This document shows positions 31,218-46,755 of a DNA stretch of 64,000 bases, in pieces (the stretch's first letter is position 1; every line of letters starts with the position of its first letter). The notes below the pieces were generated by a model. The model saw only the letters and a list, made by a program, of their open reading frames with translations, did not search any database and was not told where the DNA came from. Source of the stretch: a virus (Duplodnaviria > Caudoviricetes); IMG/VR virus record IMGVR_UViG_3300011113_000415, one strand, 5' to 3'. The position numbers and the translations under genes are program-made.

Positions 31218-31302
31218 AAAGTATTACTTTTGTAACCCGCAAAAAGTAGTACTTTTATAGTACTACTTTTCGGTTGACCAAAAAAGCAATTTCGGTTATA
31301 AT
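31218..31302 (+). promoter_or_regulatory. Sigma70 promoter with three upstream GTAnTAC palindromes
   Basis: TTGACC(31274)-17-TATAAT(31297); AAAGTATTACTTTT, AAAAGTAGTACTTTT, TAGTACTACTTTT. Confidence 0.8.
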
Positions 31303-31308
31303 ACATGT

Positions 31309-32972: not shown

Positions 32973-33176
32973 ATGTATAATGTAGCAAGCCCAACTCAAC
33001 AACAAGATTTTGAATCTTTAGATCTAGCCATGGCGCATGCCCGGGCGTTGGGTGAGTTTGTTACTATCACAGGTAATGGCATGGAGATTGTGGGTGTGTT
33101 TGGCGCTGACAGCATTCGAGATGGTCGGTGCCCTGACGGTGAGGCATACACATGGATGAAGCGGAGATCGCAGTGA
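32973..33176 (+). CDS. Early hypothetical protein
   Basis: 67 aa, abuts previous ORF. Confidence 0.55.
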   Translation: MYNVASPTQQQDFESLDLAMAHARALGEFVTITGNGMEIVGVFGADSIRDGRCPDGEAYTWMKRRSQ

Positions 33177-33397
33177 ACAGGCGTATCAAACAACTAATGG
33201 GGCAGACTCTAGACGAGCGGTTCAAGGAAACTTGGAGCACCATGACGCCTGAGGACTTGGAACGGTTTGTGAAACACTTTGCCGAACTGCTGATTTGTGA
33301 CTGTGCTGACGTTGCCTATCGCTTTGATGGTGTCACACTGGGACAAGGCTACACCATTGCCAAGCATATCAAAAAGAACTATGAGATTGAACTATGA
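33173..33397 (+). CDS. Early hypothetical protein
   Basis: GTGA overlap; FAELLICDCA motif. Confidence 0.55.
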   Translation: MNRRIKQLMGQTLDERFKETWSTMTPEDLERFVKHFAELLICDCADVAYRFDGVTLGQGYTIAKHIKKNYEIEL

Positions 33398-33651
33398 CGC
33401 ATTATTCGAACACAAATAATCCCATTGACTTTCCAAAAAAGAAAGAGATACCAATGTTGGAACGGTTCGCCGCACAGAGTCTTGTGGACCATGGCGGTGA
33501 ATTAATCTTCAGTAAAGAAAAGTTCGCCGAGTTGATTGTGCAGGAATGTGCTCGGGTAGCGGACCAATGGGTCGATGATGAAGACAATGGCCACAACTTG
33601 GTCAGTGAACGATTGCGACAACATTTTGGAGTTGAAGAATGTACGAACTAA
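33394..33651 (+). CDS. Early hypothetical protein (FAELIVQEC family, similar to 33173 and 61653)
   Basis: EKFAELIVQECA...QHFGVE. Confidence 0.6.
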   Translation: MTHYSNTNNPIDFPKKKEIPMLERFAAQSLVDHGGELIFSKEKFAELIVQECARVADQWVDDEDNGHNLVSERLRQHFGVEECTN

Positions 33652-33836
33652 TATTTACATTTTTGGTTGTGACCAAAGCCGGGCTTCCGGGCTTTCACAT
33701 GGAACGCATGAGTCAGTTTCGTGAAATAGAAGACTGTGAAAAGACCAAGACCGCCATGGTTGCATACATGGATCGGTTAGTGCGAGAGAACAAGATGTTC
33801 CCTGGTGTGTTTGAATGTCAAAAGGTACAACGATGA
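33639..33836 (+). CDS. Early hypothetical protein
   Basis: 65 aa, hydrophobic N-terminus, two Cys. Confidence 0.5.
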   Translation: MYELIFTFLVVTKAGLPGFHMERMSQFREIEDCEKTKTAMVAYMDRLVRENKMFPGVFECQKVQR

Positions 33837-34102
33837 ACCGAGAAATTACACTCACACCCGAAGGTGGTCGATTCTATCGTGCCATGACATTCCACTGGGT
33901 CACGGTGGCCATATGTTTGCCGCCCTTGATGGCACTCATGATTGTGGCCATATTGAATCCCTTGTGGTTCCGTGACTCAATGTTTAACTGGGTTGAACGA
34001 CAAGTCAACGCATTCACACGTTGGCGCAACAATGTCAAATACCGCATCTATCTCAACTGTGACCCTGTAGTTTGGCACACCCTCAAAGGAGACTTGAAAT
34101 GA
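33833..34102 (+). CDS. Small membrane protein
   Basis: One long TM segment; ATGA overlaps. Confidence 0.55.
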   Translation: MNREITLTPEGGRFYRAMTFHWVTVAICLPPLMALMIVAILNPLWFRDSMFNWVERQVNAFTRWRNNVKYRIYLNCDPVVWHTLKGDLK

Positions 34103-34497
34103 CCATGCCCGCTGGAAAATATTACATTGGTGACTTGTGCTATGTTATGCACCCTGAATGGGACGAGGCTGTGAGCCTCATGTTCCCTGACAATCATTCG
34201 GGACGTGGTGTAGATGGCGAGTTTGTTCTACGAGATGGCCGCAGATTTGCAAATTTTGGAACTCGCTGGGGCGACGGTACTTACACAAGTAACATTAGAA
34301 CACGTCACCTAGTGGACTCTGGGTCAATTGGTTGCATACGTGTAGAAGACATTCGAGACAACACCTATGACAACATTGAAACCCTGGGTGCTGTGGTAGA
34401 GTTTGCACAGCCTTTTGAAGTGTCAGAAGATTCAGGCTTGATTTGCTTTGGTGCAGTGGAAATTGAAACCAACCCCGAATACGAATTTGATGAATAA
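34099..34497 (+). CDS. Hypothetical protein
   Basis: GKYYIGDLCYV...VDSGSIGCI. Confidence 0.65.
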   Translation: MTMPAGKYYIGDLCYVMHPEWDEAVSLMFPDNHSGRGVDGEFVLRDGRRFANFGTRWGDGTYTSNIRTRHLVDSGSIGCIRVEDIRDNTYDNIETLGAVVEFAQPFEVSEDSGLICFGAVEIETNPEYEFDE

Positions 34498-34798
34498 ACT
34501 AATCCGTGATGGCCGTGTAGCAGTACTGTATTCGCCTAAGTATGGAGGCGGATGGTATTCGTGGAATCCAAATCACCCTGAAATCTTGTTTGATCCTGCC
34601 ATAGTGGACTTTTTGGAAAAGAAACAACTTGAAGAATTGCAGGTATATGTTACACTGAAATATCCCGATGTTAGTCAATGGGGCTTGGAGGGATTAGCAA
34701 TTGAGTGGATTCCCCAAGGTGTTCATTTCCGGGTGAAGGAATACGATGGCAGCGAAAGCATTGAATTAAGAGACGGAGTAAACTGGATACAGGCTTGA
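34490..34798 (+). CDS. Hypothetical protein
   Basis: VAVLYSPKYGGGWYSWN...EYDGSESI. Confidence 0.65.
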   Translation: MNKLIRDGRVAVLYSPKYGGGWYSWNPNHPEILFDPAIVDFLEKKQLEELQVYVTLKYPDVSQWGLEGLAIEWIPQGVHFRVKEYDGSESIELRDGVNWIQA

Positions 34799-34823
34799 CA
34801 CTAAATAGATTTCCTAGTATAGT
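34795..34823 (+). promoter_or_regulatory. Sigma70 promoter of the tRNA(CAU) gene
   Basis: TTGACA-17-TATAGT. Confidence 0.7.
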
Positions 34824-34832
34824 ATTTGATAC

Positions 34833-34918
34833 ACAACGGACGCCGTATTGGTCGCAGGCCCTAGACTCATAATCTAGTTCGAAAGACACTGTGGGTTCGA
34901 ATCCCACCCGTTGTACCA
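34833..34918 (+). tRNA. tRNA with CAT anticodon and long variable arm (Ile2/Met identity unclear)
   Basis: ACAACGG/CCGTTGT, loop CTCATAA, TC-GAAA-GA variable arm, TTCGAAT T-loop, CCA. Confidence 0.85.
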
Positions 34919-34926
34919 CAATAACC

Positions 34927-35406
34927 ATGACCAAAGTAAATTCCAGTCCCCAACGTCACACATTCCAACACAGCAAAATTGAGTTGGAAGCAGTGCTGGA
35001 AGATATCCGCAATCAGGATCGCCTGAAATTGGCCGACCCAGAGTGGCAAAAAGACAATCTAGAGTACGACTTGCGTAGTACCAAATGGATCTGCGACCGA
35101 GTCAAAAGCACCAAGACCTATGCTCAAAACTTGTATGCGGCCCTGTGCAACAATGACTTTCAAAAGAACGCGGTATGGACCAGACTTGAAGACAAAGTAT
35201 GGGGTTGTAGTTGGCGACATGCTGGAGGTATCGTAGCCGACATGCGTGAAGAAGGTGACTACATTGATTGGTACTGTTCGGGCATACAAGGCGAGCCTGA
35301 TGAGTCCTGGATAGATCTAGGGCATGTTCCTGAAGGCACTGTTACAGACCAAATCCGTGAAGACTTGTTTCGCCTGGGATGGCTTGTGCTAGAGTCCCGA
35401 GACTAA
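34927..35406 (+). CDS. Hypothetical protein
   Basis: YAQNLYAALCNN...CSWRHAGGIVA. Confidence 0.65.
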   Translation: MTKVNSSPQRHTFQHSKIELEAVLEDIRNQDRLKLADPEWQKDNLEYDLRSTKWICDRVKSTKTYAQNLYAALCNNDFQKNAVWTRLEDKVWGCSWRHAGGIVADMREEGDYIDWYCSGIQGEPDESWIDLGHVPEGTVTDQIREDLFRLGWLVLESRD

Positions 35407-35459
35407 ATTTTTTCTATTGCCAACATAGATAATCTCAATAGCAAAAACCTATTTTTTGC

Positions 35460-35488
35460 TTGACTTCATTGATATATACTATTATAAT
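35460..35488 (+). promoter_or_regulatory. Sigma70 promoter
   Basis: TTGACT-17-TATAAT. Confidence 0.75.
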
Positions 35489-35535
35489 AAACACTCAGTA
35501 CAAACACTGAGTTTCATTTCAACAAGGAGAAAAAT

Positions 35536-36075
35536 ATGAAAACTGTAGGCGATAAGTTAACCCCGTTTGCTGTCACTGGCGTCCGTCCTGGACAACCCGA
35601 AGACGCTTTTTATACCATTACCGACGAATCATTTGAAGGCAAGTGGAAAGTGATTGTGTACTATCCCAAAGACTTCACATTCGTTTGCCCCACCGAGATT
35701 GTGGCCTATGACAAGTTGGCTGATGACTTTGCTGACCGTGATGCAGTATTGCTAACAGGATCAACAGACAACGAGTTCTGCAAAGTGGCATGGCAAAAAT
35801 CGCATGATGACCTGCGCAAGATCACACATCATCAGTTTGCTGATACACAGCGTGGCGAGTTATCATTGATTGAACAACTGGGCGTGTTCTATGCGCCAGC
35901 AGGTGCCGCACTTCGTGCAACATTCATTGTTGATCCCAACAACGAAATCCAACACGTTACTGTCAACAACTTGAATGTTGGTCGCTCACCAGAAGAAACA
36001 CTCCGTGTGTTAGACGCTCTACAAACAGGCGAACTGTGTGCATGTAACCGTACAGTTGGTGGCGAAACCCTGTGA
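35536..36075 (+). CDS. ahpC: Peroxiredoxin AhpC
   Basis: YYPKDFTFVCPTEI; GELCACN. Confidence 0.93.
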   Translation: MKTVGDKLTPFAVTGVRPGQPEDAFYTITDESFEGKWKVIVYYPKDFTFVCPTEIVAYDKLADDFADRDAVLLTGSTDNEFCKVAWQKSHDDLRKITHHQFADTQRGELSLIEQLGVFYAPAGAALRATFIVDPNNEIQHVTVNNLNVGRSPEETLRVLDALQTGELCACNRTVGGETL

Positions 36076-36254
36076 AGATAAACTTCTTTAGTCGCGGCGT
36101 AGAAACTCTACGCCAACCTGATCGCAAACCTAGATGTTATGAACTAACCGAGCAAGAACGTCTGGACAAGATTCGTGAATGGAACAATCGTAATGTTTGG
36201 AACACTCCTGAGTTGGCTGAACAAGACCTTGAGTCCACTTATTACGGAGCATAA
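36072..36254 (+). CDS. Hypothetical protein
   Basis: 60 aa, GTGA overlap. Confidence 0.45.
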   Translation: MKINFFSRGVETLRQPDRKPRCYELTEQERLDKIREWNNRNVWNTPELAEQDLESTYYGA

Positions 36255-36256
36255 TC

Positions 36257-36910
36257 ATGTTAGAAACCATTTGCGAAACATTGGTAGAAGCCTATCGTAG
36301 AAACTGGATTACCAGTCGTGATGGCAATGTCAGTATCCGTCATCACGACCGTGATCACTTTTATATCACCCCGTCGGGTGTGCGCAAGCAGACCATGCAA
36401 CCAGATCAGTTTAAGAAGATACGATTGGTCAACAGCATCAGTGCCACACCTCCGTTCTTGACACAGTCATGGCAAGAAGATGACTATACTGACATCAGTA
36501 GCAATCTAAAGCCTAGTGGTGAGATACCCTTGCACTTTGGTTTACAGCGAGCCATGGGCCAACATGCCAATGATGTGCGTGTGGTAGTACACTTGCATCC
36601 TACCTATTGTGTGGCGGCCATGCATGCTGGTATTGATTTGTCAACTATTGTGAATGACTTTCCTGAACTGAGTCGTTACACAAGGGTGGCGCCCAATGTG
36701 GGCGATGTGCCGCCTATCAGTCAAGAACTTGCAGATCGTTGTCACCAAAATCTACAACTGGATTCCGCGGGTAACATTGCCTACGATATTGTGGGCATCA
36801 AAGGTCACGGGGTGGTGGCCATTGATACCAGTCCCTGGCGTGCATTTGAGCATATAGAGAGGTTGGAACATATTTCAAAAATTGTATTATCATCAAGGAG
36901 ATTTCAATGA
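36257..36910 (+). CDS. Class II aldolase/adducin-family protein
   Basis: DGNVSIR, PSGEIPLH, HLHP, GHGVVA. Confidence 0.85.
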   Translation: MLETICETLVEAYRRNWITSRDGNVSIRHHDRDHFYITPSGVRKQTMQPDQFKKIRLVNSISATPPFLTQSWQEDDYTDISSNLKPSGEIPLHFGLQRAMGQHANDVRVVVHLHPTYCVAAMHAGIDLSTIVNDFPELSRYTRVAPNVGDVPPISQELADRCHQNLQLDSAGNIAYDIVGIKGHGVVAIDTSPWRAFEHIERLEHISKIVLSSRRFQ

Positions 36911-37422
36911 CAGCATGGGTTGATCAACTCAAAGAAGGCCTGCCCGAGTATGCCAAAGATACAAAGTTAAACTTGGACGCTGTGATCAAGCGTGGCACCA
37001 TTGATCCAGAACAAGCAGAAGCCATTGCCTTGGCGGCGGCTTTTGCTACAGGCAATGGTAAATTGGTCTCATTCATTCAAAGCAACGTTGCCAATGGGGT
37101 AGAGCGTGATGCGGCACTCACAGCCGGTTCAATCATGTCAATGAACAATACTTGGTATCCTTACGTTGAAATGGCGGAAGATCCTGCACTCAAAGGCTTG
37201 CCAGCACAACTTAGAATGAATGCCATTGCCACACACGGTGGTACTACAAAGGCTCGTTTTGAAGCCTACAGTCTAGCCGCTTCAATAATAGGCAAGTGCC
37301 ATTTCTGTGTCAAAGCACATTATGATACCTTGAAAAAGGAAGGCTACTCAGTTGAACAACTGAGAGACATTGGTCGTATTGCGTCTGTGATTGCCAGCGT
37401 TGCTCGTGTGCTGAACAGTTGA
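36907..37422 (+). CDS. ahpD: Alkylhydroperoxidase AhpD
   Basis: MNNTWYP; CHFCVKAH. Confidence 0.9.
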   Translation: MTAWVDQLKEGLPEYAKDTKLNLDAVIKRGTIDPEQAEAIALAAAFATGNGKLVSFIQSNVANGVERDAALTAGSIMSMNNTWYPYVEMAEDPALKGLPAQLRMNAIATHGGTTKARFEAYSLAASIIGKCHFCVKAHYDTLKKEGYSVEQLRDIGRIASVIASVARVLNS

Positions 37423-37661
37423 GCAAGCGGCAAAACCAGTTGACCGGTGTTGGTTATTGAAACTGTTGCGAAGCACTTCACACTGAATCAAGGTCTCAAC
37501 GGGTCTTGATTCTTTGATCAAGGCATGATCGGCAGTGAAAATAAACAAAGTCAATATGTATTCCATATGATTATATATCCTACTAAACGTTGGAAATTGT
37601 GTTGTTTGTTATACAGAGTTCTTGGATTAATATAACCTGCAAAACTAATACTTTTGTGTTA

Positions 37662-37690
37662 TTGACCCAAATTGGATCCTGTGTTATAAT
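37662..37690 (+). promoter_or_regulatory. Sigma70 promoter
   Basis: TTGACC-17-TATAAT. Confidence 0.75.
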
Positions 37691-37707
37691 TACAAACTAA
37701 GGAGAAT

Positions 37708-38178
37708 GTGATGCCATGGATCGAAAATGTAGCCGCCGCAGATGTGCCCCAAAGGCATCATCACGAGGCTGGCGACAATGCCATGCTGATCCAGATCATG
37801 GATCCGTGTCCCACCTGGTGGCCCGCTCCTGCACACAACTTTCGAGAAACACATCGTTTTGAATTTTTGGATGCAGAAGATGGTGATCGTTTTCCTGAAG
37901 AATGTTTGATCAGCGATGCCCAGGCTGAAAAAATTGTAGGCCTGTTGCAACATGCCTTGGCCAATCGCATGAACGTGGTTGTGCATTGTGTGGCAGGATT
38001 GTGTCGCTCAGGTGCAGTGGCTGAAGTTGGCGTGATGATGGGCTTTGATGAGTGTGAACGCACTCGCATACCCAACATTAGAGTCAAGCATAGGTTGATG
38101 AAGGCCTTGGGCTGGACCTATGATGCGAATGAACAGCCAGATGCAGAAGCCTGGCGTAAGATGAACCTAGATTATTAA
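37708..38178 (+). CDS. Dual-specificity/tyrosine phosphatase-like protein
   Basis: HCxxGxxRS: VHCVAGLCRSG. Confidence 0.8.
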   Translation: MMPWIENVAAADVPQRHHHEAGDNAMLIQIMDPCPTWWPAPAHNFRETHRFEFLDAEDGDRFPEECLISDAQAEKIVGLLQHALANRMNVVVHCVAGLCRSGAVAEVGVMMGFDECERTRIPNIRVKHRLMKALGWTYDANEQPDAEAWRKMNLDY

Positions 38179-38188
38179 GGAGGCAATA

Positions 38189-38794
38189 ATGCCCGCAGTA
38201 TTTTTGACAAGCGACACGCACTTTGGACACGCAGGTGTCTGTCGCTTCACGCACCCAGATGATCCTGAAGTGAAATTGCGTCCCTGGACTGATCCAGACG
38301 AGATGGATGAGGCAATGATCAAGAAATGGAACGAACGTGTTCGTCCCAACGACAAGGTCTATCACTTGGGCGATGTTGTGATCAATCGCAAGGCTTTGAA
38401 GACCTTGGCACGTTTGAACGGCGACAAGGTGTTGATCCGTGGCAACCACGACATCTTTAGAGATGACGAGTATCGTGAATACTTTCGTGAATTGCGAGCC
38501 TACCATGTGATGAACGGCATGATCTTGAGTCACATTCCTGTGCATGAGGCTTCGTTGGGTCGCTTTGGAGTTAACATTCACGGACACTTGCATGCCACTC
38601 GTGTGAAAAAAGCACGTGGGGTTGACGCCAAGACCGGAACTGTTTTGTACAGCACTGAAATTGACCCACGCTACCATTGCGTGTGTGTGGAGCAAACTGA
38701 CTTTGCACCCATCTTGTTTGAAGATGTTATCAAACGGATTGAAGCAGAAGGTGGTAAAGTTGGCTTTCAAAATGGCAATGGACCCACAATGTAG
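38189..38794 (+). CDS. Calcineurin-like metallophosphoesterase
   Basis: SDTHFGH, HLGDV, GNHD, HGHLH. Confidence 0.88.
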   Translation: MPAVFLTSDTHFGHAGVCRFTHPDDPEVKLRPWTDPDEMDEAMIKKWNERVRPNDKVYHLGDVVINRKALKTLARLNGDKVLIRGNHDIFRDDEYREYFRELRAYHVMNGMILSHIPVHEASLGRFGVNIHGHLHATRVKKARGVDAKTGTVLYSTEIDPRYHCVCVEQTDFAPILFEDVIKRIEAEGGKVGFQNGNGPTM

Positions 38795-38797
38795 GGG

Positions 38798-38826
38798 TTG
38801 ACAAGGTATAAATAAACCTGTATAAT
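38798..38826 (+). promoter_or_regulatory. Consensus sigma70 promoter, with TATAAATA in the spacer, heading the tRNA array
   Basis: TTGACA-17-TATAAT. Confidence 0.85.
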
Positions 38827-38835
38827 TAGCACATT

Positions 38836-38973
38836 ATGAAAACATTTGGACCTTATTCGTTATCAGTCCGTCCACAGAGTCTGGGCACATGCCCCGCCTT
38901 GTGGTCCACGATTGAGAACATGCATAATGGTCGTGAACTAGATCACAACAGGGTCCAAGGAGATCGGGAGTAG
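38836..38973 (+). CDS. Putative attenuator leader peptide (45 aa, near-leaderless)
   Basis: MKTFGPYSLSVRPQSLGTCPALWSTIENMHNGRELDHNRVQGDRE*; ends just before terminator and contains the antiterminator arm. Confidence 0.5.
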   Translation: MKTFGPYSLSVRPQSLGTCPALWSTIENMHNGRELDHNRVQGDRE

Positions 38974-38998
38974 GTCAATACATACTCCAACTTCGAAG

Positions 38999-39028
38999 AC
39001 CCTGGAACTCGAAACTCCAGGGTTTTTT
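38999..39028 (+). terminator. Intrinsic terminator (attenuator)
   Basis: ACCCTGGA/TCCAGGGT 8-bp stem followed by TTTTT; 5' arm can instead pair with CAGGGTC at 38949-38955. Confidence 0.8.
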
Positions 39029-39047
39029 ATTTTTAAAAAAGGAAAAA

Positions 39048-39203
39048 ATGACAGATACAAAATGTAAACGTCAGGCAGAGTACACGCGACAACACACACT
39101 AACTGAAGCAGATCTTCGCAGAATGATGGCAGAAAAATTAGAACGTGCTCGAGCGTGGCATAATGCCATGATCAAGCGACGAGTTCTTCAAGAGAACCGT
39201 TGA
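39048..39203 (+). CDS. Small basic hypothetical protein (51 aa)
   Basis: AAAGGA RBS; MTDTKCKRQ...RVLQENR. Confidence 0.5.
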   Translation: MTDTKCKRQAEYTRQHTLTEADLRRMMAEKLERARAWHNAMIKRRVLQENR

Positions 39204-39408
39204 TTCATGTAGTGGCGACAGGAAACGAGATCCTGCAACACACTTTAAACAGTTGCAAATGGGCGGCCTCGGGGATGGATTATCTTCTTGTAGACAAAAA
39301 AATCCGAGCGTATCGAAGCACTTTATCCTTCGGCTCTCTAGCACAAGGGCTAGAGCAAGGTAACCATAGAGTGCTTCGATACACGCATTCACAAGAGTGT
39401 GTTTATAT

Positions 39409-39486
39409 GCCCCTATGGACAAATTGGTAAAGTCATCTCTCTCAAAAGGAGAAGTCGTCTCTGTTCGAATCAGAGTAGGGGTACCA
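39409..39486 (+). tRNA. tRNA-Leu(CAA), short variable loop
   Basis: Loop CTCAAAA; CCA encoded. Confidence 0.85.
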
Positions 39487-39490
39487 TCAT

Positions 39491-39582
39491 GGAAGATGAT
39501 GCAGGTGGGATGGTCCGCCGACGAGCCTTGAAAACTCGGTTCCGAGAAATCGGATGGGGTTCGACTCCTCCGTCTTCCGCCA
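39491..39582 (+). tRNA. tRNA-Ser(TGA)
   Basis: Loop CTTGAAA, long variable arm, G73, CCA. Confidence 0.9.
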
Positions 39583-39587
39583 ATTGT

Positions 39588-39664
39588 TGGGGATTCGCCA
39601 AGTTGGTTAAGGCATCGGATTTTGATTCCGACATGCATAGGTTCGAATCCTATATCCCCTACCA
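39588..39664 (+). tRNA. tRNA-Gln(TTG)
   Basis: Loop TTTTGAT; CCA. Confidence 0.9.
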
Positions 39665-39669
39665 AATTT

Positions 39670-40860
39670 TCAAACGTAAGGTTTGATCAATTCGTAAAAC
39701 TCAGGAAACGTAGATTCAAAAGACTGGTCGCGCATGCGATCTAAATCTTTTGTCATGTGCCAAAACCATTCCCAAGCATTTACATCATAGGATATGTATT
39801 CAGGTATACTTTGCATCATGAAATTAACTGTGGCAGTATCTTGAAGTATTTTTTCAGCGACTATTTTTTTCAATGACATTGGCATGTGTCGTATATCATA
39901 CTCAGGTGGACTGTAGACAAAATTACAGCCTACTATTATTCCAAATTTTGCTAAATTTTTTTTGATTTCATCAATATAAAATACATTTAGTGGTGTGACT
40001 GTGACACAGATGTTAATTTCTGTGTTGGGATGATTTGCGGTCCAGTCTTTGTAGCGTTGCAGATTTTCAAATACCACGTTAGCGTCAACTGGATATCTAA
40101 TATATTCAAGATGTTTGTGGACATGACTGTCTATGCTAATTCCAATTTTTACATATTTGTATTTGACCAGTGTGTCTAGATATGCTGGGTTCCATATTGT
40201 AGCATTGGTATGAAGTCTTAAACTAACTTTGGAACTCTTGCCAGCATCGGCCACTGTTTTTAATACACGAAACAACCCAGGTGTTAGGAATGGCTCACCA
40301 CCGTATATATCAAAAAACTCCAAGTTTGGTAACCATTGCTCCGTAGTCTCCCATATGGGATTATCTCTATCAAATGCAGATCTTATGCTTTCAAATCGTT
40401 TGGTATACTCTTGTTGTGTGCCTTTAAATCCATCGTGTTCTATCGCAAATTGATAGGCATTGTTATACCAACCTGTACTAGTGGCCGGATTGCACATTCT
40501 ACAGGCAAGATTACAAACGTTGCCAGGTTTCATAATCAGCACACGAGGCTGATCAGGCAATGACTCAAGATGACCAAACATGTGGTTGAATCGCTGTCTA
40601 CTACTGATTTTTCCACTGGCTTCTAGGTCCTGGCAAGGTCTGCAACTTTCAATGGTTTTTCCGTGGTCTAATCCAGCAGCCAACATTTTTCTAGTGGGAC
40701 TAGACCAGGCTTCAGCCAAGGTATTTTTGTCAGCAAACAGCACCTGTTGTTGACGATTGGTAAAACTCCAATTGTTTATGTTGCAGGCACAGAAGTCACC
40801 ATCGTTTTGAATGGCCAGGCCCATATGTGGCATCACACAAAAAGTGTCAGATTTAAGCAT
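39670..40860 (-). CDS. Radical SAM protein (SPASM/twitch-associated type), antisense inside the tRNA array
   Basis: CNLACRMC; N-terminal FCVMP...C...C motif; YGGEPF; HTNAT. Confidence 0.85.
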   Translation of the reverse strand: MLKSDTFCVMPHMGLAIQNDGDFCACNINNWSFTNRQQQVLFADKNTLAEAWSSPTRKMLAAGLDHGKTIESCRPCQDLEASGKISSRQRFNHMFGHLESLPDQPRVLIMKPGNVCNLACRMCNPATSTGWYNNAYQFAIEHDGFKGTQQEYTKRFESIRSAFDRDNPIWETTEQWLPNLEFFDIYGGEPFLTPGLFRVLKTVADAGKSSKVSLRLHTNATIWNPAYLDTLVKYKYVKIGISIDSHVHKHLEYIRYPVDANVVFENLQRYKDWTANHPNTEINICVTVTPLNVFYIDEIKKNLAKFGIIVGCNFVYSPPEYDIRHMPMSLKKIVAEKILQDTATVNFMMQSIPEYISYDVNAWEWFWHMTKDLDRMRDQSFESTFPEFYELIKPYV

Positions 40861-40909
40861 CCTTTATTTAACTGCTAGATATTGTGTTGTAAAAATACAA
40901 CAATCAGCA

Positions 40910-40938
40910 TTGACCAATAATTGGTAAACTGCTACAAT
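40910..40938 (+). promoter_or_regulatory. Sigma70 promoter
   Basis: TTGACC-17-TACAAT. Confidence 0.7.
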
Positions 40939-40982
40939 AGAACTTAACAAAGCAACAAAGTCGATCGAGACTGGTTGCACTA

Positions 40983-41183
40983 GATCTTTAAAATACTCAA
41001 AGAGGTTACCAGACCCGTTAGAGGCATTGGTAGAAGTGAACAAGGCATCGGCGGGTGCCCACTTGCTATCAGTCATGAAATAGGCTCTCACTCCCCCTCG
41101 GGAGGTGATCCGGTAGAAGCGGCGGACCGTCTGGCAGTAATGACCGTGGTGACTTGGCCTCGCAAGCCAAGCAGAATAAGATC
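40983..41183 (+). ncRNA. Candidate structured ncRNA (~200 nt, unassigned)
   Basis: GATCTT/AAGATC closing stem; TACCA/TGGTA and CTTGGC/GCCAAG hairpins; directly after a promoter. Confidence 0.4.
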
Positions 41184-41212
41184 CACAATGGTTCCTCAAT
41201 GTACAAAAACAT

Positions 41213-41288
41213 GCTCCGTTCGTCTATCGGTTAGGACACCGGCCTTTCACGTCGGTAAGGAGGGGTTCGATTCCCCCACGGAGTACCA
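41213..41288 (+). tRNA. tRNA-Glu(TTC)
   Basis: Loop CTTTCAC; CCA. Confidence 0.93.
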
Positions 41289-41296
41289 TTGTTTTT

Positions 41297-41440
41297 ATAG
41301 TCAAGCATCGATAAGGTACCGTGTTGGGACGCCAACACTATTCGGGTCAAAGCGGCCGGCGACTGATCCTGACATAACTGCCTCGGCTTTGGAACTGTTA
41401 GCGCAGGACTCCTAAATTGGCATTCTCGGTGCTTGACTAT
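41297..41440 (+). ncRNA. Candidate structured ncRNA (~144 nt, unassigned)
   Basis: 15-bp closing stem ATAGTCAAGCATCGA/TCGGTGCTTGACTAT; inner GTGTTGG/CCAACAC hairpin. Confidence 0.5.
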
Positions 41441-41448
41441 AAAAATTT

Positions 41449-41526
41449 GGTCTGTTAGTATAGTTGGCCTAATACGCCTGCCTGTCACGCAGGAGATCAG
41501 GGATTCGAATTCCCTACAGACCGCCA
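41449..41526 (+). tRNA. tRNA-Asp(GTC)
   Basis: Loop CTGTCAC; CCA. Confidence 0.93.
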
Positions 41527-41614
41527 AGTTTTGAAGCCACATCGCCTGGGCACTTCTCTCAGCAATGAGACACTAGGTCCTGCAACCGTGGCTTCTCCCT
41601 TTATGGAGTTGACT

Positions 41615-41857
41615 ATGACACTACACAATTTGACAGCCGGTGGTGTTGCTATCATTGAAACTGTCGACGGCAACTACAGTGCAAGGTTGAAATCAATGGG
41701 ATTTCGATCAGGACAAATGGTTCAAGTTCTTAGAAGAACCGCTCATGTCATGCATGTTCGTGTTGGTAGCACCGAGTGGGCCATACGTGATCGCGATGCT
41801 GAGTCAGTAAAAATTATTCCGGAAAACCCGAGCAAGGTGCATGGGCGTGACTGTTAA
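41615..41857 (+). CDS. feoA: FeoA-domain protein (reads into tRNA-Asn)
   Basis: RLKSMGFRSGQMVQVLR...VRVGSTEWAIR; GGAG RBS. Confidence 0.7.
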   Translation: MTLHNLTAGGVAIIETVDGNYSARLKSMGFRSGQMVQVLRRTAHVMHVRVGSTEWAIRDRDAESVKIIPENPSKVHGRDC

Positions 41858-41896
41858 TCACTGGTTAGAAGGGTTCGATTCCCTTATCCGGAGCCA
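41818..41896 (+). tRNA. tRNA-Asn(GTT)
   Basis: Loop CTGTTAA; G73; CCA. Confidence 0.88.
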
Positions 41897-41900
41897 AATT

Positions 41901-41974
41901 GCCTCTGTAGTATAATGGATAATACACTGGCCTACGAAGCCGGCGATTGTGGTTCAATTCCCCACAGAGGCTCC
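41901..41974 (+). tRNA. tRNA-Arg(ACG)
   Basis: Loop CTACGAA; imperfect T-stem; CCA. Confidence 0.82.
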
Positions 41975-41975
41975 A

Positions 41976-42050
41976 TGCCCCTTTAGTTTAAAAGTAAAAC
42001 AGACGCTTGATAAGCGTCAGTCGGAGGAGCGTTACCTCCCGGGGGTACCA
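41976..42050 (+). tRNA. tRNA-Ile(GAT), non-canonical T-loop
   Basis: Loop TTGATAA; T-loop AGCGTTA; CCA. Confidence 0.82.
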
Positions 42051-42071
42051 TGTTTTTAAAAGGAGAATGCG

Positions 42072-42212
42072 ATGAAACGCAAGATAACCGTCCGGCAACG
42101 TAACCCCTTCGTTGCATTGGCCATGAAACGTAAAGCGGGTAGCCATCGAAAGACTAACAAAGCAGTTCGTCGATGGGACAAAGTAAGGGATCGTAATTCA
42201 AAGGTAGAATAG
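42072..42212 (+). CDS. 46-aa K/R-rich peptide (stop codon lies inside tRNA-Lys)
   Basis: AAGGAG RBS; MKRKITVRQRNPFVALAMKRKAGSHRKTNKAVRRWDKVRDRNSKVE. Confidence 0.6.
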   Translation: MKRKITVRQRNPFVALAMKRKAGSHRKTNKAVRRWDKVRDRNSKVE

Positions 42213-42260
42213 TGGGCTTTTAACTCATCTATCCCAGTTCGAGTCTGGGCGGTCCTACCA
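42187..42260 (+). tRNA. tRNA-Lys(TTT)
   Basis: Loop CTTTTAA; CCA. Confidence 0.9.
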
Positions 42261-42289
42261 TATAAAAATATATTGTTTCAGTGTATTTC

Positions 42290-42333
42290 TATATGGTGTC
42301 AATAGTCTAGTGGCAAAACCGCGGGTTGTGATT
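42290..42333 (+). pseudogene. 5' half of tRNA-His (duplicate of 44257-44300)
   Basis: 44-bp direct repeat with 2 mismatches, ending just past the GTG anticodon loop. Confidence 0.85.
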
Positions 42334-42348
42334 TAGATATGCTCGAAA

Positions 42349-42933
42349 CTATGCGATTATTTGTTGACTTAGTTCTTTTAATTTAGCCACTGTAGGAGCA
42401 TCATCTTTGAAACCGATTTGTAAGGCAGTTCTTGATCCGTCAACCATGTTTTCAACACTGTGCAAACATTGTGTGCTGAAAAATACCCACTGCCCAACTT
42501 GAAAGCGATGACGACATATTTCAATTAAATTACTGTAGTCTGTGCCAAAGGTAAAAGGTACCCTAATGTAAGGTTGGTTTTTTTCACGCCAGTGTACAGT
42601 ATCAACTTCGGAACCGCCGGTTTCGAATAACCACATTAACGCCCAATAACGCGACTGATCGGTATGCGGAGGTGATATTCCTTTGCCCATAACACTGATG
42701 CCAATATCTTGATTATGATCACTGCCTACATTTTCATCTACCCAGTCTTGGATTCTTTTACTAACTTTATATTTTGTATAATCCATTGGTAAAATTTCTT
42801 TACCATCTCTTATGGTTATCCTAGGTGTACACTTTATGTCATAAGTGTCATTTCCTAAAAAAAGTTGTTCAGGAAATGGGGGCAAGTCAGGGAAAAAAAC
42901 TAATTCATCTTTGGTCATAAAAGCCTCTCTCAA
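42349..42933 (-). CDS. 2OG-Fe(II) oxygenase-like protein
   Basis: PHTD...LHSVEN...RTALQI. Confidence 0.55.
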   Translation of the reverse strand: MREAFMTKDELVFFPDLPPFPEQLFLGNDTYDIKCTPRITIRDGKEILPMDYTKYKVSKRIQDWVDENVGSDHNQDIGISVMGKGISPPHTDQSRYWALMWLFETGGSEVDTVHWREKNQPYIRVPFTFGTDYSNLIEICRHRFQVGQWVFFSTQCLHSVENMVDGSRTALQIGFKDDAPTVAKLKELSQQIIA

Positions 42934-42987
42934 CTATTTATCCTGCAAAATCTGCATCTTCAAAATCGCGTATATTAAATATAAATT

Positions 42988-44223
42988 ATGCTTACAAAAA
43001 ACATCTATTTACTGTATCCAGCAGGTTATTCAGGCAACTTCATCAAATGGGCCATTAGTGCCAGTGACATAGATTTGCAAAAAATCACAGTCAATGACCC
43101 TATAAACAAAACGTTTAGTCACAAATACGGTGGGCCCGGGACAACACATTTAGAGGACAGAGTACCCACACATCAAGACATTTATAGGCATCTTATTTGG
43201 ATGGCATACAATCGTCCGGTAGCCAATCAAATCTATATACTTTTTACAACTTCACAATCAATGAGTCAAACCTTAGACGGAATTTTGAGCACAGATCCTG
43301 ATCCATTGATTATTATCATACATGACAACAGAGATAGAGACACAAGAACCTACGGAAATTTAAATGCTATAACCAAATGGCCTACCTACATGCACACTAG
43401 ACAAACTCTTTGGAACTTTGAAAAACAATCAAGATTAGAATACAGTTTGATGACAAATCATGACTTTTTCAATTGTGAAAATGATATGAATTTGAGAAAT
43501 ATGATTGCTCTGAAGAGTTTTGCATGGCTAGTAGAACTTGATCCGTTTGACGATCAGTCAAAAAATCAATACCTTGAGGATTTGTTAAAAAATAAACTTT
43601 GGTTTGATACGAGACAGCAATATCAACCACATGAATTGCTGCCGCACATGTATGCGGTACATGAAGCACTGCCAAATAATGCAGTTCATCAACTGAGTTG
43701 TAAAGATGTGGTCAGTGAAAATTTTCCAAATATTTTATATGATATTTTAAAGACCAGTGGTTGTTGTAGTGAATTTGATATATCACCAGTCAAACAGATA
43801 CATGAAAAGTATATCTCTGCTCAGAAAAATTTAGATTGGTTCTCTTCAATTGCGCATTGGAGAAAAACTGGTTATCTTGATCAATACCTAGTAAGTCATG
43901 CAGTCATTCAAGGCTTTGTAATTCAAGAAATTTTAGAAAAGTTGAAATTCATTGATTACATCAAGTTTGATCCACATTACAAATGGTACGATTTTTATCA
44001 GGCTGTTCGTGACCAGGGTTGGCCGGATTGTGATCAAGAAAAAGATTTTTTGACATTGCCTTTACATATTAGAGAAGAATTAATTACAAAATTTAATTAC
44101 AAATTTGAACCTATACAGGTACAAAATAATCAAATTTTAAAAGCATTAGAAAATTGGGAATCAATGTCTATACAAGAAATCAATGATTTGTATCTACAAA
44201 GTGATGTTTGGTCTATTTATTAA
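42988..44223 (+). CDS. AT-rich hypothetical protein (sulfotransferase-like N-terminus)
   Basis: YPAGYSGNFIKW; YQAVRDQGWPDC motif. Confidence 0.55.
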   Translation: MLTKNIYLLYPAGYSGNFIKWAISASDIDLQKITVNDPINKTFSHKYGGPGTTHLEDRVPTHQDIYRHLIWMAYNRPVANQIYILFTTSQSMSQTLDGILSTDPDPLIIIIHDNRDRDTRTYGNLNAITKWPTYMHTRQTLWNFEKQSRLEYSLMTNHDFFNCENDMNLRNMIALKSFAWLVELDPFDDQSKNQYLEDLLKNKLWFDTRQQYQPHELLPHMYAVHEALPNNAVHQLSCKDVVSENFPNILYDILKTSGCCSEFDISPVKQIHEKYISAQKNLDWFSSIAHWRKTGYLDQYLVSHAVIQGFVIQEILEKLKFIDYIKFDPHYKWYDFYQAVRDQGWPDCDQEKDFLTLPLHIREELITKFNYKFEPIQVQNNQILKALENWESMSIQEINDLYLQSDVWSIY

Positions 44224-44261
44224 ACAAAAAACATCGTAATTCCTTAATTTATCAATTATAT

Positions 44262-44336
44262 GGTGTCCATAGTTTAGTGGCAAAACCGCGGGTTGTGATT
44301 CCGCTATCATGAGTTCGATTCTCATTGGATACCCCA
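44262..44336 (+). tRNA. tRNA-His(GTG)
   Basis: G-1:C73; loop TTGTGAT; CCA. Confidence 0.92.
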
Positions 44337-44337
44337 G

Positions 44338-44412
44338 GGATGAGTAGCATAATGGTAGTGCGCCTCCTTCATACGGAGTCAGGTGGTAGTTCGATTCTAC
44401 CTTCATCCACCA
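44338..44412 (+). tRNA. tRNA-Met(CAT), probably elongator
   Basis: Loop TTCATAC; paired 1-72; CCA. Confidence 0.85.
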
Positions 44413-44415
44413 TGA

Positions 44416-44613
44416 TTATTCGCCGGAGCGGTTGGCCACTTCTTGTGCGTCACCCATGACTTCAGGCGGGGCACCTGGCACATTGTTTGTGGTTGGGTCC
44501 AGCAACATTTCATTTGCCGCAAGTGCCGCAATTAGGTAATGTACTTTTTTCTCAAGATCCCGAAGTGCGCTGTTGGGATCAATACGTGTGTCTCTAGCAA
44601 AAAAATTGTCCAT
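44416..44613 (-). CDS. Hypothetical protein
   Basis: 65 aa; AAGGAAA RBS on minus strand. Confidence 0.5.
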   Translation of the reverse strand: MDNFFARDTRIDPNSALRDLEKKVHYLIAALAANEMLLDPTTNNVPGAPPEVMGDAQEVANRSGE

Positions 44614-44646
44614 AATAGTTTCCTTTGTAGAGTATTCAACACGTTT

Positions 44647-44730
44647 GCCCCGGTGGTGTAATGGCAGCCACGATGGTCTTAGAAACCATTGCTTAACAGC
44701 GTGTCGGTTCGAGTCCGACCTGGGGCACCA
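44647..44730 (+). tRNA. tRNA-Leu(TAG)
   Basis: Loop CTTAGAA; long variable arm; CCA. Confidence 0.92.
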
Positions 44731-44736
44731 TGATAT

Positions 44737-44810
44737 GGCTCGTTAGTATAGTGGCAGTGCGGAAGTCTCCAAAACTTCTAGCGGTGGTTCGATTCCATCA
44801 CGAGTCGCCA
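44737..44810 (+). tRNA. tRNA-Trp(CCA)
   Basis: Loop CTCCAAA; CCA. Confidence 0.92.
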
Positions 44811-44817
44811 AAAATTT

Positions 44818-44892
44818 GGGCTGTTGGTATAGTTGGGAACACAGTGGCTTTGCAAGCCTCAGTCCCCGGTTCGAACCCGGGACGGTCCACCA
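44818..44892 (+). tRNA. tRNA-Ala(TGC)
   Basis: Loop TTTGCAA; G3:U70; CCA. Confidence 0.92.
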
Positions 44893-44900
44893 TAAAATTC

Positions 44901-44988
44901 GGAGGTATCGCATAGCGGTCGATTGCACGGGACTGTAAATCCTGCGCCCTTAGGGGCCTCGGTGGTTCAAATCCATCTACCTCCACCA
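44901..44988 (+). tRNA. tRNA-Tyr(GTA)
   Basis: Loop CTGTAAA; long variable arm; CCA. Confidence 0.92.
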
Positions 44989-44991
44989 CTT

Positions 44992-45065
44992 GCCTCGTTA
45001 GTTTAATGGTAGAACTCCGTCTTTACACGGCGGTTACGGCAGTTCGATTCTGTCACGAGGTACCA
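44992..45065 (+). tRNA. tRNA-Val(TAC)
   Basis: Loop TTTACAC; CCA. Confidence 0.92.
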
Positions 45066-45094
45066 TTGACACATAATTAAATATTGTATATAAT
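45066..45094 (+). promoter_or_regulatory. Consensus sigma70 promoter
   Basis: TTGACA-17-TATAAT. Confidence 0.8.
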
Positions 45095-45109
45095 ACAACA
45101 AGAAACAAT

Positions 45110-45187
45110 GCAACGGTGGCAGAGTGGTCCAATGCATGGGATTGCAAATCCCAAAAACCGCTGGTTCAAATCCAGCCCGTTGCTCCA
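45110..45187 (+). tRNA. tRNA-Cys(GCA)
   Basis: Loop TTGCAAA; U73; CCA. Confidence 0.92.
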
Positions 45188-45190
45188 TAC

Positions 45191-45430
45191 GTTCCAGCGT
45201 CACTGGATAGTCCGACCCAGACGATGAGAAGTGCAATGACATGCACGGGTGGTTCTGAAGAGGCGAATCTTCACAGTAGAGATACTGCGGTCCAACCAAA
45301 CCGGCGTTAGCAACACGAGAGCGGTCCCTGTCGGGAAGCGGGTGGAGGGTGTAAGTGATGAATAGACTAGTTGGGGCAACTTGACGAAATTTCTGATACA
45401 CTATAATTACCGCCGGGGGACGTCAGAGCA
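45191..45430 (+). ncRNA. Candidate multi-branched ncRNA (~240 nt, unassigned)
   Basis: Hairpins TCCAG/CTGGA, GTGCA/TGCAC, TGAAG/CTTCA, CAGTA/TACTG; long-range CCGAC/GTCGG and GTGTA/TACAC. Confidence 0.5.
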
Positions 45431-45439
45431 ATCAAATAC

Positions 45440-45514
45440 CGCGGGATGGAGAAGCGGTAACTCGTCAGGCTCATAACCTGAAGATCGGCGGTTCGATTCC
45501 GCCTCCCGCAACCA
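45440..45514 (+). tRNA. Initiator tRNA-fMet(CAT)
   Basis: C1:A72 mismatch; loop CTCATAA; CCA. Confidence 0.9.
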
Positions 45515-45517
45515 ACT

Positions 45518-45591
45518 GCCCTTTTAGTTAAATGGTATAACAGTTGATTTGTAATCATCAATTGGCAGTTCGATTCTGTCAAGGGGCACCA
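45518..45591 (+). tRNA. tRNA-Thr(TGT)
   Basis: Loop TTTGTAA; CCA. Confidence 0.9.
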
Positions 45592-45596
45592 CAATT

Positions 45597-45845
45597 ATGC
45601 TAGATTATATCATTACTTTTGTTGCTGTGTTTGCTACTGATTTGATTTACATTCTTTTTGTAAAGTCAATTCAGGACAACCAGCCTTGGCGTGCCGCATG
45701 GTGGTCAATGGTTTGTACACTCACAGCCTCAGTGGCCGTGATCAACTACATTGAAAATCATTGGGCCTTGATTCCGGCCCTGGCAGGTGCATTCTTCGGT
45801 GCCTATGTAGGCATGAAGTACAAGAAAAAAATCATCTCCGATTAG
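45597..45845 (+). CDS. Small membrane protein (stop codon inside tRNA-Pro)
   Basis: Three TM segments; ends KKKIISD*. Confidence 0.6.
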   Translation: MLDYIITFVAVFATDLIYILFVKSIQDNQPWRAAWWSMVCTLTASVAVINYIENHWALIPALAGAFFGAYVGMKYKKKIISD

Positions 45846-45911
45846 TATAGCCTGGTAGTACCCGTGGTTTGGGACCATGAAGCGGGAGTTCAAATCTCTC
45901 ATCGGAGACCA
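45836..45911 (+). tRNA. tRNA-Pro(TGG)
   Basis: Loop TTTGGGA; CCA. Confidence 0.9.
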
Positions 45912-46081
45912 TAAGTGTGGTATCAGGCACAAACTCACGTGGAGGATTTATCAGCATGGGATCTGGCACAAAGTCTCTACGCACAGTAGAGTAACCATGC
46001 TCTTGATAAACAACTTCAGCGGCCACACAATACAAGGCTTCAATGCCCAATTCATTGTCATATTTCATAGCCCTATTTATT

Positions 46082-46157
46082 CTGGCGTTAGTATAATGGA
46101 TCAATACAGCGGGCTTCTACCCCGCGAATGTGGGTTCGATTCCTGCACGCCGGACCA
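46082..46157 (+). tRNA. tRNA-Arg(TCT)
   Basis: Loop CTTCTAC; CCA. Confidence 0.9.
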
Positions 46158-46181
46158 CTCTATAAATAAAAGAAAGACCAT

Positions 46182-46649
46182 ATGAAAAAACTTGACCTAG
46201 ACCAAGTGAAAAATTATATACGGGCACAAACGCCCCAAACTGCTGTGTATCTTGGTTGCGACAGTGAACGTGTGAAAGTTCGCGGACGCTGGTATGCTGA
46301 CTATGCTTTGGCCATTGTGGTTCACATTGACAGTTGCCATGGTTGCAAAATCTTTGGCGAAGTTCAAAGAGAACTGGACTGGGATCAACGAAGTGATCGT
46401 CCCAGCATGAGACTCATGAACGAAGTATACAAAGTGGGTGACCTTTTTCAGAGTCTGGCAGATGTGTTGGAAGATAGATTGGTTGAAGTACACCTTGACA
46501 TCAATCCTGATCAAATGTACAAGTCAAGCATGGTGATCAATCAGGCCATTGGCTATATCAAAGGCACCTGCAATGTTACTCCCATGGTCAAGCCACTCTC
46601 TTTCGCGGCAAGTTACGCGGCGGACCGTTTACTTGTAGTTAACGGTTAG
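46182..46649 (+). CDS. RNase H-like YkuK/DUF458-family protein
   Basis: YLGCDS, RLMNEV, EVHLDIN, SFAASYAADR; TATAAATA upstream. Confidence 0.7.
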   Translation: MKKLDLDQVKNYIRAQTPQTAVYLGCDSERVKVRGRWYADYALAIVVHIDSCHGCKIFGEVQRELDWDQRSDRPSMRLMNEVYKVGDLFQSLADVLEDRLVEVHLDINPDQMYKSSMVINQAIGYIKGTCNVTPMVKPLSFAASYAADRLLVVNG

Positions 46650-46717
46650 AGACTGCTACCTATGCCGCAGATGATTAGATTTAATATAAAAGTTCAATTA
46701 AAAATTCCGCTCCAGAA

Positions 46718-46746: not shown

Positions 46747-46755
46747 TACATTGAA

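Follow-up and report, generated by a model that had tools for sequence, protein, structure and literature searches.

A putative ribosome-dependent attenuator on a leaderless leader reading frame at the entrance to a phage tRNA region

The window analysed here, a stretch of 64,000 nucleotides (nt) from IMG/VR virus record IMGVR_UViG_3300011113_000415 (Duplodnaviria; Caudoviricetes), comes from a giant freshwater phage whose IMG/VR relatives reach up to 364 kb. On its plus strand, in front of a group of transfer RNA (tRNA) genes, lies a compact cassette (38798-39034) in which a consensus promoter is followed by a short open reading frame (ORF) and an intrinsic terminator, and in which the end of the ORF is the complement of one arm of that terminator. 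The explanation that we favour, and that we consider probable, is that the cassette acts as a ribosome-dependent transcription attenuator whose leader ORF is leaderless. It is based on the anatomy of the cassette, its conservation, its coding signature and the thermodynamic competition between its two alternative RNA structures, all of which are shown by the analysis. The features of the cassette are the following.

38798-38826, plus strand: sigma-70 consensus promoter, with TTGACA at 38798-38803, a 17-nt spacer and TATAAT at 38821-38826 (12/12)
38836-38973, plus strand: leader ORF of 45 codons and a TAG stop (38971-38973), with its ATG 9 nt after the -10 hexamer
38846-38854, plus strand: region 1 (TTGGACCTT), in codons 4-7, paired with 38950-38958 in the minimum-free-energy fold
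38949-38956, plus strand: region 2 (CAGGGTCC), the 5' arm of the antiterminator, in leader codons 38-41
38959-38994, plus strand: inner part of the antiterminator, with GGAG/CTTC (38959-38962 with 38991-38994) plus the stop-codon hairpin
38995-39034, plus strand: intrinsic terminator, with its 5' arm at 38995-39006, loop at 39007-39015, 3' arm at 39016-39027 and a T-run to 39034

A promoter scan of the 13-kb tRNA region found four perfect (12/12) promoters, and that of the leader is one of them. Transcription is predicted to start at A38833, which leaves a 5' leader of 3 nt before the ATG at 38836; the ORF has no Shine-Dalgarno sequence and is of the leaderless type. Near its 3' end the ORF contains CAGGGTC (38949-38955), which is exactly reverse-complementary to GACCCTG (38998-39004, region 3) in the 5' arm of the terminator. 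This arm (GAAGACCCTGGA, 38995-39006) is followed by the 9-nt loop, by TCCAGGG (39016-39022) and then by T6-A-T5. The terminator is a 7-bp GC-rich core lengthened by A-U pairs (-17 kcal/mol, z = -4.25), and its 9-nt loop is the sole reason why it was missed by a consensus terminator scan, which had a loop limit of 8 nt. The stop codon lies inside the 5' arm of a hairpin of its own, in which GGAGTA (38967-38972) pairs with TACTCC (38983-38988). The full 204-nt transcript folds with -67.4 kcal/mol (z = -3.9), and 0/200 shuffles were equally stable. When the 3' terminator arm is omitted from the fold, 38949-38955 pairs with 38998-39004 and closes a long interrupted hairpin, which also encloses the GGAG/CUUC pairing and the stop-codon hairpin. 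The promoter, the ATG, the 45-codon ORF, the 7-nt complement, the stop hairpin and the terminator were all found where the original prediction, made from the letters of the DNA, had placed them, and codon inspection bore out its remark that the leader holds no run of one amino acid. A scan of 33000-50000 against Rfam (E-value of at most 1) gave no family for 38798-39034.

We assembled 13 distinct copies of this cassette, which we refer to as type L, from the loci with the neighbouring phosphatase gene and from peptide and DNA-pattern searches of viral and metagenome contigs. As homologues share descent, the copy counts are not independent events, and the comparison between cassette types that is described below is the strongest independent evidence. 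The promoter is common to 13/13 type-L copies as TTGA(C/T)A-17-TA(C/T)AAT, and in all of them the ATG stands exactly 9 nt after the -10 hexamer; three copies have a second in-frame ATG at the predicted start site. Each copy has an open frame of 40-47 codons that ends at the same position, with TAG or, in one copy, with TAA. None of the indels (9, 6 and 6 nt) shifts the frame, and the other same-strand frames contain 1-4 stops per copy. The pooled ratio of nonsynonymous to synonymous polymorphism (pN/pS) is 0.37 in the ORF frame versus 1.2 and 0.69 in the other two frames, and it is 0.24 in the LGTCPALW core of the peptide. Based on the conservation of the frame and on this pattern of pN/pS, we infer that the leader ORF is translated and that its peptide is only moderately constrained.

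The long hairpin, which we call the antiterminator, and the terminator are mutually exclusive in 13/13 type-L copies, as the 5' arm of the terminator is common to both. The long hairpin is the stabler one in all 13 (-18.4 to -26.4 kcal/mol versus -14.7 to -17.7 kcal/mol for the terminator), and the RNAalifold consensus structure across type L is the long hairpin, not the terminator. With the native upstream sequence, the equilibrium probability of the terminator core is 0.001-0.76 in 10/13 copies. When the upstream sequence of these 10 copies was dinucleotide-shuffled, the median was 1.0 and 0/100 shuffles were as low, which indicates that the competition with the terminator exceeds chance. 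For one more copy, L081, 0/100 shuffles were as low as well, but the terminator remains highly probable there (0.915). The window itself still favours the terminator at equilibrium (0.998), because region 1 (TTGGACCTT) pairs with the antiterminator arm; the equilibrium fold of the window is this 1:2 pairing plus the terminator. Region 1 is specific to the window and absent from the 12 relatives, and in the modelled folds it would act as an anti-antiterminator segment.

The sequence of these elements changes in ways that mostly preserve the pairings in question. The core of region 2, GGGTC, is invariant in the 13 sequences, and the changes in the outer helix of type L are compatible (C-G to U-G, A-U to G-U) or fall in a fraying helix end. 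Compensatory changes in the terminator among the type-L relatives consist of an inserted A-U pair and of GGA/UCC versus GG/CC. The stop-codon hairpin is retained through a register shift despite four substitutions: the relatives read AGA GTA TAG where the window reads CGG GAG TAG, and both offer GAGTA to an unchanged TACTC, with the GAGTA of the relatives 2 nt further upstream. Structure pairs were counted with RNAalifold plus custom scripts.

The same slot is occupied in other phages by cassettes with unrelated mini-ORFs. Cassettes were sought via the conserved start of the RNA that precedes tRNA-Glu and via the terminator/promoter junction. Where a stretch matched the start of this RNA, a cassette precedes the tRNA-Glu array in 13/13, and in phages of the window type a small ORF (orf51) and three tRNAs are inserted between cassette and array. 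Type S (6 distinct copies) has 25-29 codons and an ATG 6 nt after the -10 hexamer, and type M (11 distinct copies) has 31-36 codons and an ATG 5 nt after it. The peptides of types S, M and L are mutually unrelated and the body of the RNA differs among them; only the switch logic is shared. All cassettes combine a consensus promoter and a leaderless start with a stop-codon hairpin and a terminator, and the last codons of each mini-ORF contain a complement of the terminator arm of its own cassette. In types L and S, CAGGGUC(UUUG) pairs with (CAAA)GACCCUG. In type M, GCGGG pairs with CCCGC, and the terminator is AACCCGCC/GGCGGGUU. The type-M pairing differs from that of types L and S by two double-compensated pairs, so there is covariation between the types, and among relatives the terminator arms show compensatory changes, reading CCCUGC/GCAGGG versus CCCUCC/GGAGGG versus CCCGCC/GGCGGG. 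In a swap test, the type-L ORF end gave -15.9 kcal/mol with the type-L arm versus -6.6 kcal/mol with the type-M arm, and the type-M ORF end gave -11.5 kcal/mol with the type-M arm versus -9.0 kcal/mol with the type-L arm.

In type L and in L106 the codons over the motif GGGTC are xGG GTC, and in type S they are GGT CTT. The fact that it is kept across differing reading frames argues that it is conserved as RNA rather than as protein. The pN/pS is 0.56 in type S and 0.64 in type M, each value being the lowest in the ORF frame, and the type-M indels are all in frame; the peptide is weakly constrained in all three types. In 30/30 cassettes the end of region 2 lies 5-15 nt before the stop. The upstream neighbour is not the same gene in the different types, so it is with the tRNA region that the cassette travels, rather than with the phosphatase gene that precedes it in the window. 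The architecture that the original prediction would lead one to expect in front of the tRNA arrays of related phages is therefore seen in the 13 type-L copies and in two more cassette types.

The influence of a ribosome on this competition was modelled in a footprint scan, in which a 28-nt mask was placed at each codon and the probability of the terminator was computed; these are equilibrium values on complete transcripts and not evidence of function. In L095, the terminator probability is about 0.01 without a ribosome or with one at most codons up to 32, is 0.1-0.8 at codons 12-16 and is 1.0 from codon 34 to the stop, with the switch from about 0.01 to 1.0 at codons 33-34. In L102 (type S) the switch lies between codons 15 and 19. 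In the window, the probability is 1.0 without a ribosome, drops to 0.22-0.74 for codons 1-11, when the footprint masks region 1, and is 0.93-1.0 (mostly 1.0) afterwards. L081, L103 and L116 favour the terminator at all ribosome positions. As far as geometry goes, the placement of the stop codon inside the antiterminator lets the position of the ribosome select the structure. The proposed attenuator geometry, that is, a short ORF, an arm common to antiterminator and terminator and a stop inside the antiterminator, thus held up in the 13 copies and in types S and M, and the modelling reproduced the predicted behaviour, in which a ribosome near the stop favours the terminator and an early or absent ribosome favours the antiterminator.

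From these results we infer a regulated read-through, in which the signal would be the speed or the capacity of translation. Host RNA polymerase would initiate at the consensus promoter, and the transcript would start 3 nt upstream of the AUG. The 5' half of the antiterminator would consist of the last 8 codons plus the stop, and the 3' end of this hairpin would double as the 5' arm of the terminator. A ribosome at the last ~10 codons or at the stop would melt the antiterminator and leave the terminator arm free, so that the terminator forms and releases an RNA of ~200 nt. With a lagging ribosome or, in most relatives, with none, the antiterminator would form first and the polymerase would continue, in the window into orf51, a structured RNA, tRNA-Leu, tRNA-Ser and tRNA-Gln. 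With its extra region 1, the window may have three states, as in trp: termination without a ribosome, read-through with a ribosome held in codons 1-11, and termination with a ribosome at the end.

The leaders of the Escherichia coli and Salmonella amino acid operons (trpL, hisL, leuL, thrL, ilv) likewise have a promoter-proximal short ORF, exclusive hairpins with one common arm and a stop placed for masking the antiterminator arm, and the 1:2 pairing of the window, which gives three-state logic, resembles the trp type. Unlike these leaders, the phage leader has no Shine-Dalgarno sequence, starts 0-3 nt from the 5' end, holds no codon run and, with 45 codons, is long for a leader; its cargo consists of tRNA genes, a small ORF and a structured RNA rather than biosynthetic enzymes. 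As most relatives lack region 1, the absence of translation would there give read-through rather than super-attenuation, unlike in the trp type. Leaderless leader ORFs are known from Actinobacteria, in the ilvBNC, trp and leu attenuators of Corynebacterium glutamicum (PMC11857589, PMC3890552) and in the polycysteine leaderless short ORFs of mycobacteria (bioRxiv 10.1101/834739). There, as is proposed for the phage, a regulatory short ORF on a leaderless transcript controls the downstream genes of an operon, but those leaders carry runs of the sensed amino acid in front of cellular biosynthetic genes, and the phage leader has no run and a tRNA cargo. Leader attenuators that sense translation stress precede the resistance genes vmlR of Bacillus subtilis (PMC9226507) and msrD of streptococci (bioRxiv 10.1101/2021.11.29.470318). 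In these, slowed or stalled translation of a leader without an amino acid codon run shifts the terminator to the antiterminator, as proposed here; however, they have a Shine-Dalgarno sequence, drug-dependent arrest peptides and ribosome-protection cargo, and the phage leader lacks a Shine-Dalgarno sequence.

Several observations weigh against an attenuator. In most relatives a promoter directly follows the cassette, so read-through is not required for the expression of the tRNAs there. The leader has no run of one codon, and its codons match the phage tRNAs (0.42 by Watson-Crick pairing, 0.76 with wobble) about as those of phage genes do (0.456 and 0.745). With a pN/pS below 1, the leader peptides are not free to vary. 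Within type L, RNAalifold found no double compensatory change in the antiterminator among the 13 copies. Finally, in L081, L103 and type M the terminator is favoured at equilibrium (0.92-1.0) even without a ribosome, and a switch in these cassettes would have to be kinetic.

The original prediction took the leader for a possible sensor of general tRNA supply, and this is not supported: the window leader uses 20/20 amino acids, which is true of ~2% of random 45-amino-acid stretches of phage ORFs (p ~0.02), but the leaders of the relatives use 16-20, and the codon match equals the gene background. We therefore dropped the pan-amino-acid signature of a general sensor, as the use of 20/20 is not a family trait, and also the idea of leader codons matched to the phage tRNA set, as there is no enrichment over phage genes. 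A lead comes from the residues just before region 2. In type L they are E-N-N-G-S-E-S-D-D-N-R, and the array starts with Glu, Asp, Asn and Arg; in type M they are H-D-Y-R-E, with an array that starts with Glu, Tyr, Asp, Arg and His; in type S they are E-H-E-W-D, with an array that starts with Glu, Asp and Trp. These clusters beside region 2 may echo the first tRNAs of their own array, but this is a lead only. The local Glu/Asp-rich clusters are suggestive, not significant; whole-leader counts and cross-type swaps, with the first five tRNAs per array, do not tell the own array from others; and stalling of a ribosome on part of the type-L cluster would promote termination, which weakens the lead. 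A broader proposal, which we put forward tentatively and would rather doubt than believe, is that giant freshwater phages possess a family of leaderless attenuators at the entrance of the tRNA region, which gauge the decoding speed of the host on a short test frame, possibly with the codons that the nearest downstream tRNAs decode (type L: Glu, Asp, Asn and Arg; type M: His, Asp, Tyr, Arg and Glu; type S: Glu, Asp and Trp). Extra phage tRNAs would then be transcribed only when decoding falters, for example under a tRNA-cleaving defence, and leader-peptide attenuation would thereby provide feedback control of tRNA genes. The link to anticodon nucleases or to starvation in the original prediction is purely speculative.

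The presence of a promoter behind the cassette in most relatives and the constraint on the peptide would both suit an autonomous early gene, a moron, for a 45-amino-acid protein. Such a gene would have its own promoter and an ordinary, slightly leaky terminator, the stop hairpin would stabilise the 3' region of the messenger RNA, and read-through into the downstream genes would be passive. Phage morons likewise have their own strong promoter and a terminator, are present or absent among close relatives and sit in variable slots. The leader ORF is under purifying selection, as judged by the pN/pS values given above, and the slot after the phosphatase is variable and holds other self-contained cassettes, for example in L001 a leaderless 76-amino-acid membrane-like ORF with its own promoter. 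Among the 80 loci that were found via the phosphatase, only 2 have the cassette, and most have no tRNA within 4 kb downstream. We nevertheless regard a moron as unlikely. It leaves unexplained why three unrelated mini-ORFs end in the complement of a terminator arm that covaries between types, why that hairpin out-competes the terminator in most type-L copies and why GGGTC persists although the reading frame over it changes. An antiterminator that uses the terminator arm and covaries with it across unrelated ORFs, as in the phage cassettes, would not be expected of a moron. Moreover, the 45-amino-acid peptide matches neither a Pfam nor a PHROG family, and the ESM atlas offers no credible neighbour.

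The terminated RNA of ~200 nt, alone or with the peptide, might instead be the main product and act in trans as a phage small RNA, with the control of read-through being secondary. The strong structure of the promoter-to-terminator transcript would agree with this, as would one hairpin within the ORF that covaries (AU 6, GC 4; RNAalifold), and the other perfect promoters of the region directly drive stable RNAs (tRNA-Cys, tRNA-Ser and a transfer-messenger RNA (tmRNA)). There is a published precedent in the trpL attenuator of Sinorhizobium meliloti, the products of which, rnTrpL and peTrpL, act in trans (PMC6614838, PMC7298713). A trans-acting RNA or peptide could coexist with attenuation and would explain a pN/pS below 1, and functions of their own, as in S. 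meliloti, could explain the weak purifying selection on the phage peptides. As the main function, however, a trans-acting RNA seems to us quite improbable, given that there is no Rfam family match, that no common RNA body is retained across types L, S and M and that all three types have a coding signature. A stand-alone non-coding small RNA does not fit the conserved frame, the in-frame indels and the pN/pS that is lowest in frame 0 in all three types.

We give equally little credence to a factor-controlled terminator. It would shield the tRNA region against strong early transcription, and it would be overcome not through the position of the ribosome but by an antitermination protein of the phage or the host, or by a phage polymerase; the mini-ORF would be incidental or would only help to unmask the terminator. 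Early regions of phages often pair a strong promoter and a short ORF with a terminator that is later read through, as in the logic of lambda tR1. The layout of the cassette fits this type of logic, a small basic ORF (orf51) comes directly downstream, and in several cassettes the equilibrium lies on the side of the terminator. However, neither a nut- or put-like element nor a known antiterminator gene was identified, and such a factor predicts neither the complement of the terminator arm in the ORF end, nor its covariation, nor the fixed leaderless start. A coupling of the pyrBI type, in which the ribosome blocks the terminator directly, is ruled out, as the stop lies 21 nt before the terminator arm.

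Why and when phages use their tRNA arrays is debated, the proposals being codon compensation, the replacement of degraded host tRNAs and the escape from anticodon nucleases. If the cassette is a ribosome-dependent attenuator, the phage would measure the decoding capacity of the host and adjust its own tRNA supply, and leader-peptide attenuation would extend from amino acid and resistance genes to tRNA genes and to viruses. A full-text literature search of incomplete coverage did not turn up any description of phage tRNA genes under leader-peptide attenuation. The cassette would also be a compact and testable part of ~240 nt that is leaderless and needs no protein factor, and the three interchangeable versions of the mini-ORF would be a natural experiment on which features of a leader matter.

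Upstream of the cassette are a dual-specificity phosphatase-like gene and a metallophosphatase gene (38189-38794). In GenBank phages, blastn found only tRNA-Gln and a weak phosphatase match and no relative of the cassette. The features downstream are the following.

39048-39203, plus strand: orf51, a basic ORF of 51 amino acids with AGGA 6 nt before its ATG, starting 14 nt after the T-run
39205-39664, plus strand: presumed read-through cargo, made up of the structured RNA, tRNA-Leu(CAA), a type-II tRNA and tRNA-Gln(UUG)
39409-39486, plus strand: tRNA-Leu(CAA), an ARAGORN/Rfam tRNA match
39491-39578, plus strand: type-II tRNA, missed by ARAGORN, with 34 bits to the Rfam tRNA-Sec model
39588-39664, plus strand: tRNA-Gln(UUG), an ARAGORN/Rfam tRNA match
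40910-40938, plus strand: next promoter (TTGACC, 17-nt spacer, TACAAT), which drives a conserved RNA of ~270 nt and tRNA-Glu

Between 38826 and 39873 there is no promoter-like site of at least 9/12 on the plus strand. The terminator is thus followed on the same strand, as an attenuator requires, by orf51 and the first three tRNAs without an intervening promoter. In general, 12-14 nt separate the T-run from the start of the genes downstream of the cassettes, which have a Shine-Dalgarno sequence and no promoter of their own. The equivalent of the 40910 promoter is located ~90 nt after the terminator in L021-type relatives and within ~10 nt of it in types S and M, and further perfect promoters at 45066, 46718 and 48652 directly precede tRNA-Cys, tRNA-Ser and a permuted tmRNA. 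The description of the cassette as the head of the tRNA array is therefore only partly right: it applies to orf51, the structured RNA and the three tRNAs, which have no recognisable promoter of their own, but not to the next blocks, which have theirs at 40910, 45066 and 46718.

The product of orf51, which is kept in L081, L082 and L092, has no match in Pfam, PHROGs or the ESM atlas. Between orf51 and tRNA-Leu sits the structured RNA (~39205-39405, ~200 nt), in which GCGTATCGAAGCAC forms a long stem with GTGCTTCGATAC; its apical insert differs in L081. The segment 39256-39320 was found again in many short contigs of four sequencing runs, of which three are probably DNA and one is a metatranscriptome; the pieces assembled from these runs show no transcript starts, ends or read-through for the cassette. 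The type-II tRNA at 39491-39578 has, by eye, the anticodon loop CUUGAAA, which would make it tRNA-Ser(UGA), and its CCA end is encoded. As a peculiarity of the window phage, a radical SAM/SPASM gene (39670-40860, minus strand) is inserted between tRNA-Gln and the promoter that follows. The possibility that the leader peptide is the precursor of a ribosomally synthesized and post-translationally modified peptide, with this gene as its maturase, is ruled out, as the gene is absent at the locus in L081, L082, L017 and L085, all of which retain the peptide.

Most type-L relatives (L017 at 4840-4890 and the equivalents in L021 and L093-L100) have a strong ribosome binding site and a conserved 15-codon ORF after the terminator, followed by the next promoter. 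This ORF, MSTEEYW(Q/R)WI..NVQ, contains two Trp codons and may be a second tiny regulatory ORF. The RNA-like stretch of ~270 nt before tRNA-Glu (40945-41212) is a constant landmark behind all three cassette types and has no Rfam family match. Its 37-nt core (41004-41040) is 100% identical in L021, against only 74-91% for the remaining matched stretches of that relative, and 32 nt of this core recur exactly in 7 viral contigs. In the type-M phage L111, ~1133 nt downstream of the cassette, ARAGORN reports a tRNA with the anticodon CUA (labelled Pyl), possibly an amber-suppressor tRNA. The permuted tmRNA behind the promoter at 48652 (48690-49273) matches Rfam with 80 bits (E = 2.6e-14). Elsewhere in the window, at 31274-31650, a strong promoter is followed by an ATG 6 nt after the -10 hexamer, which opens a leaderless ORF of 114 amino acids that is GIY-YIG-like by eye and indicates that leaderless expression recurs in the window phage.

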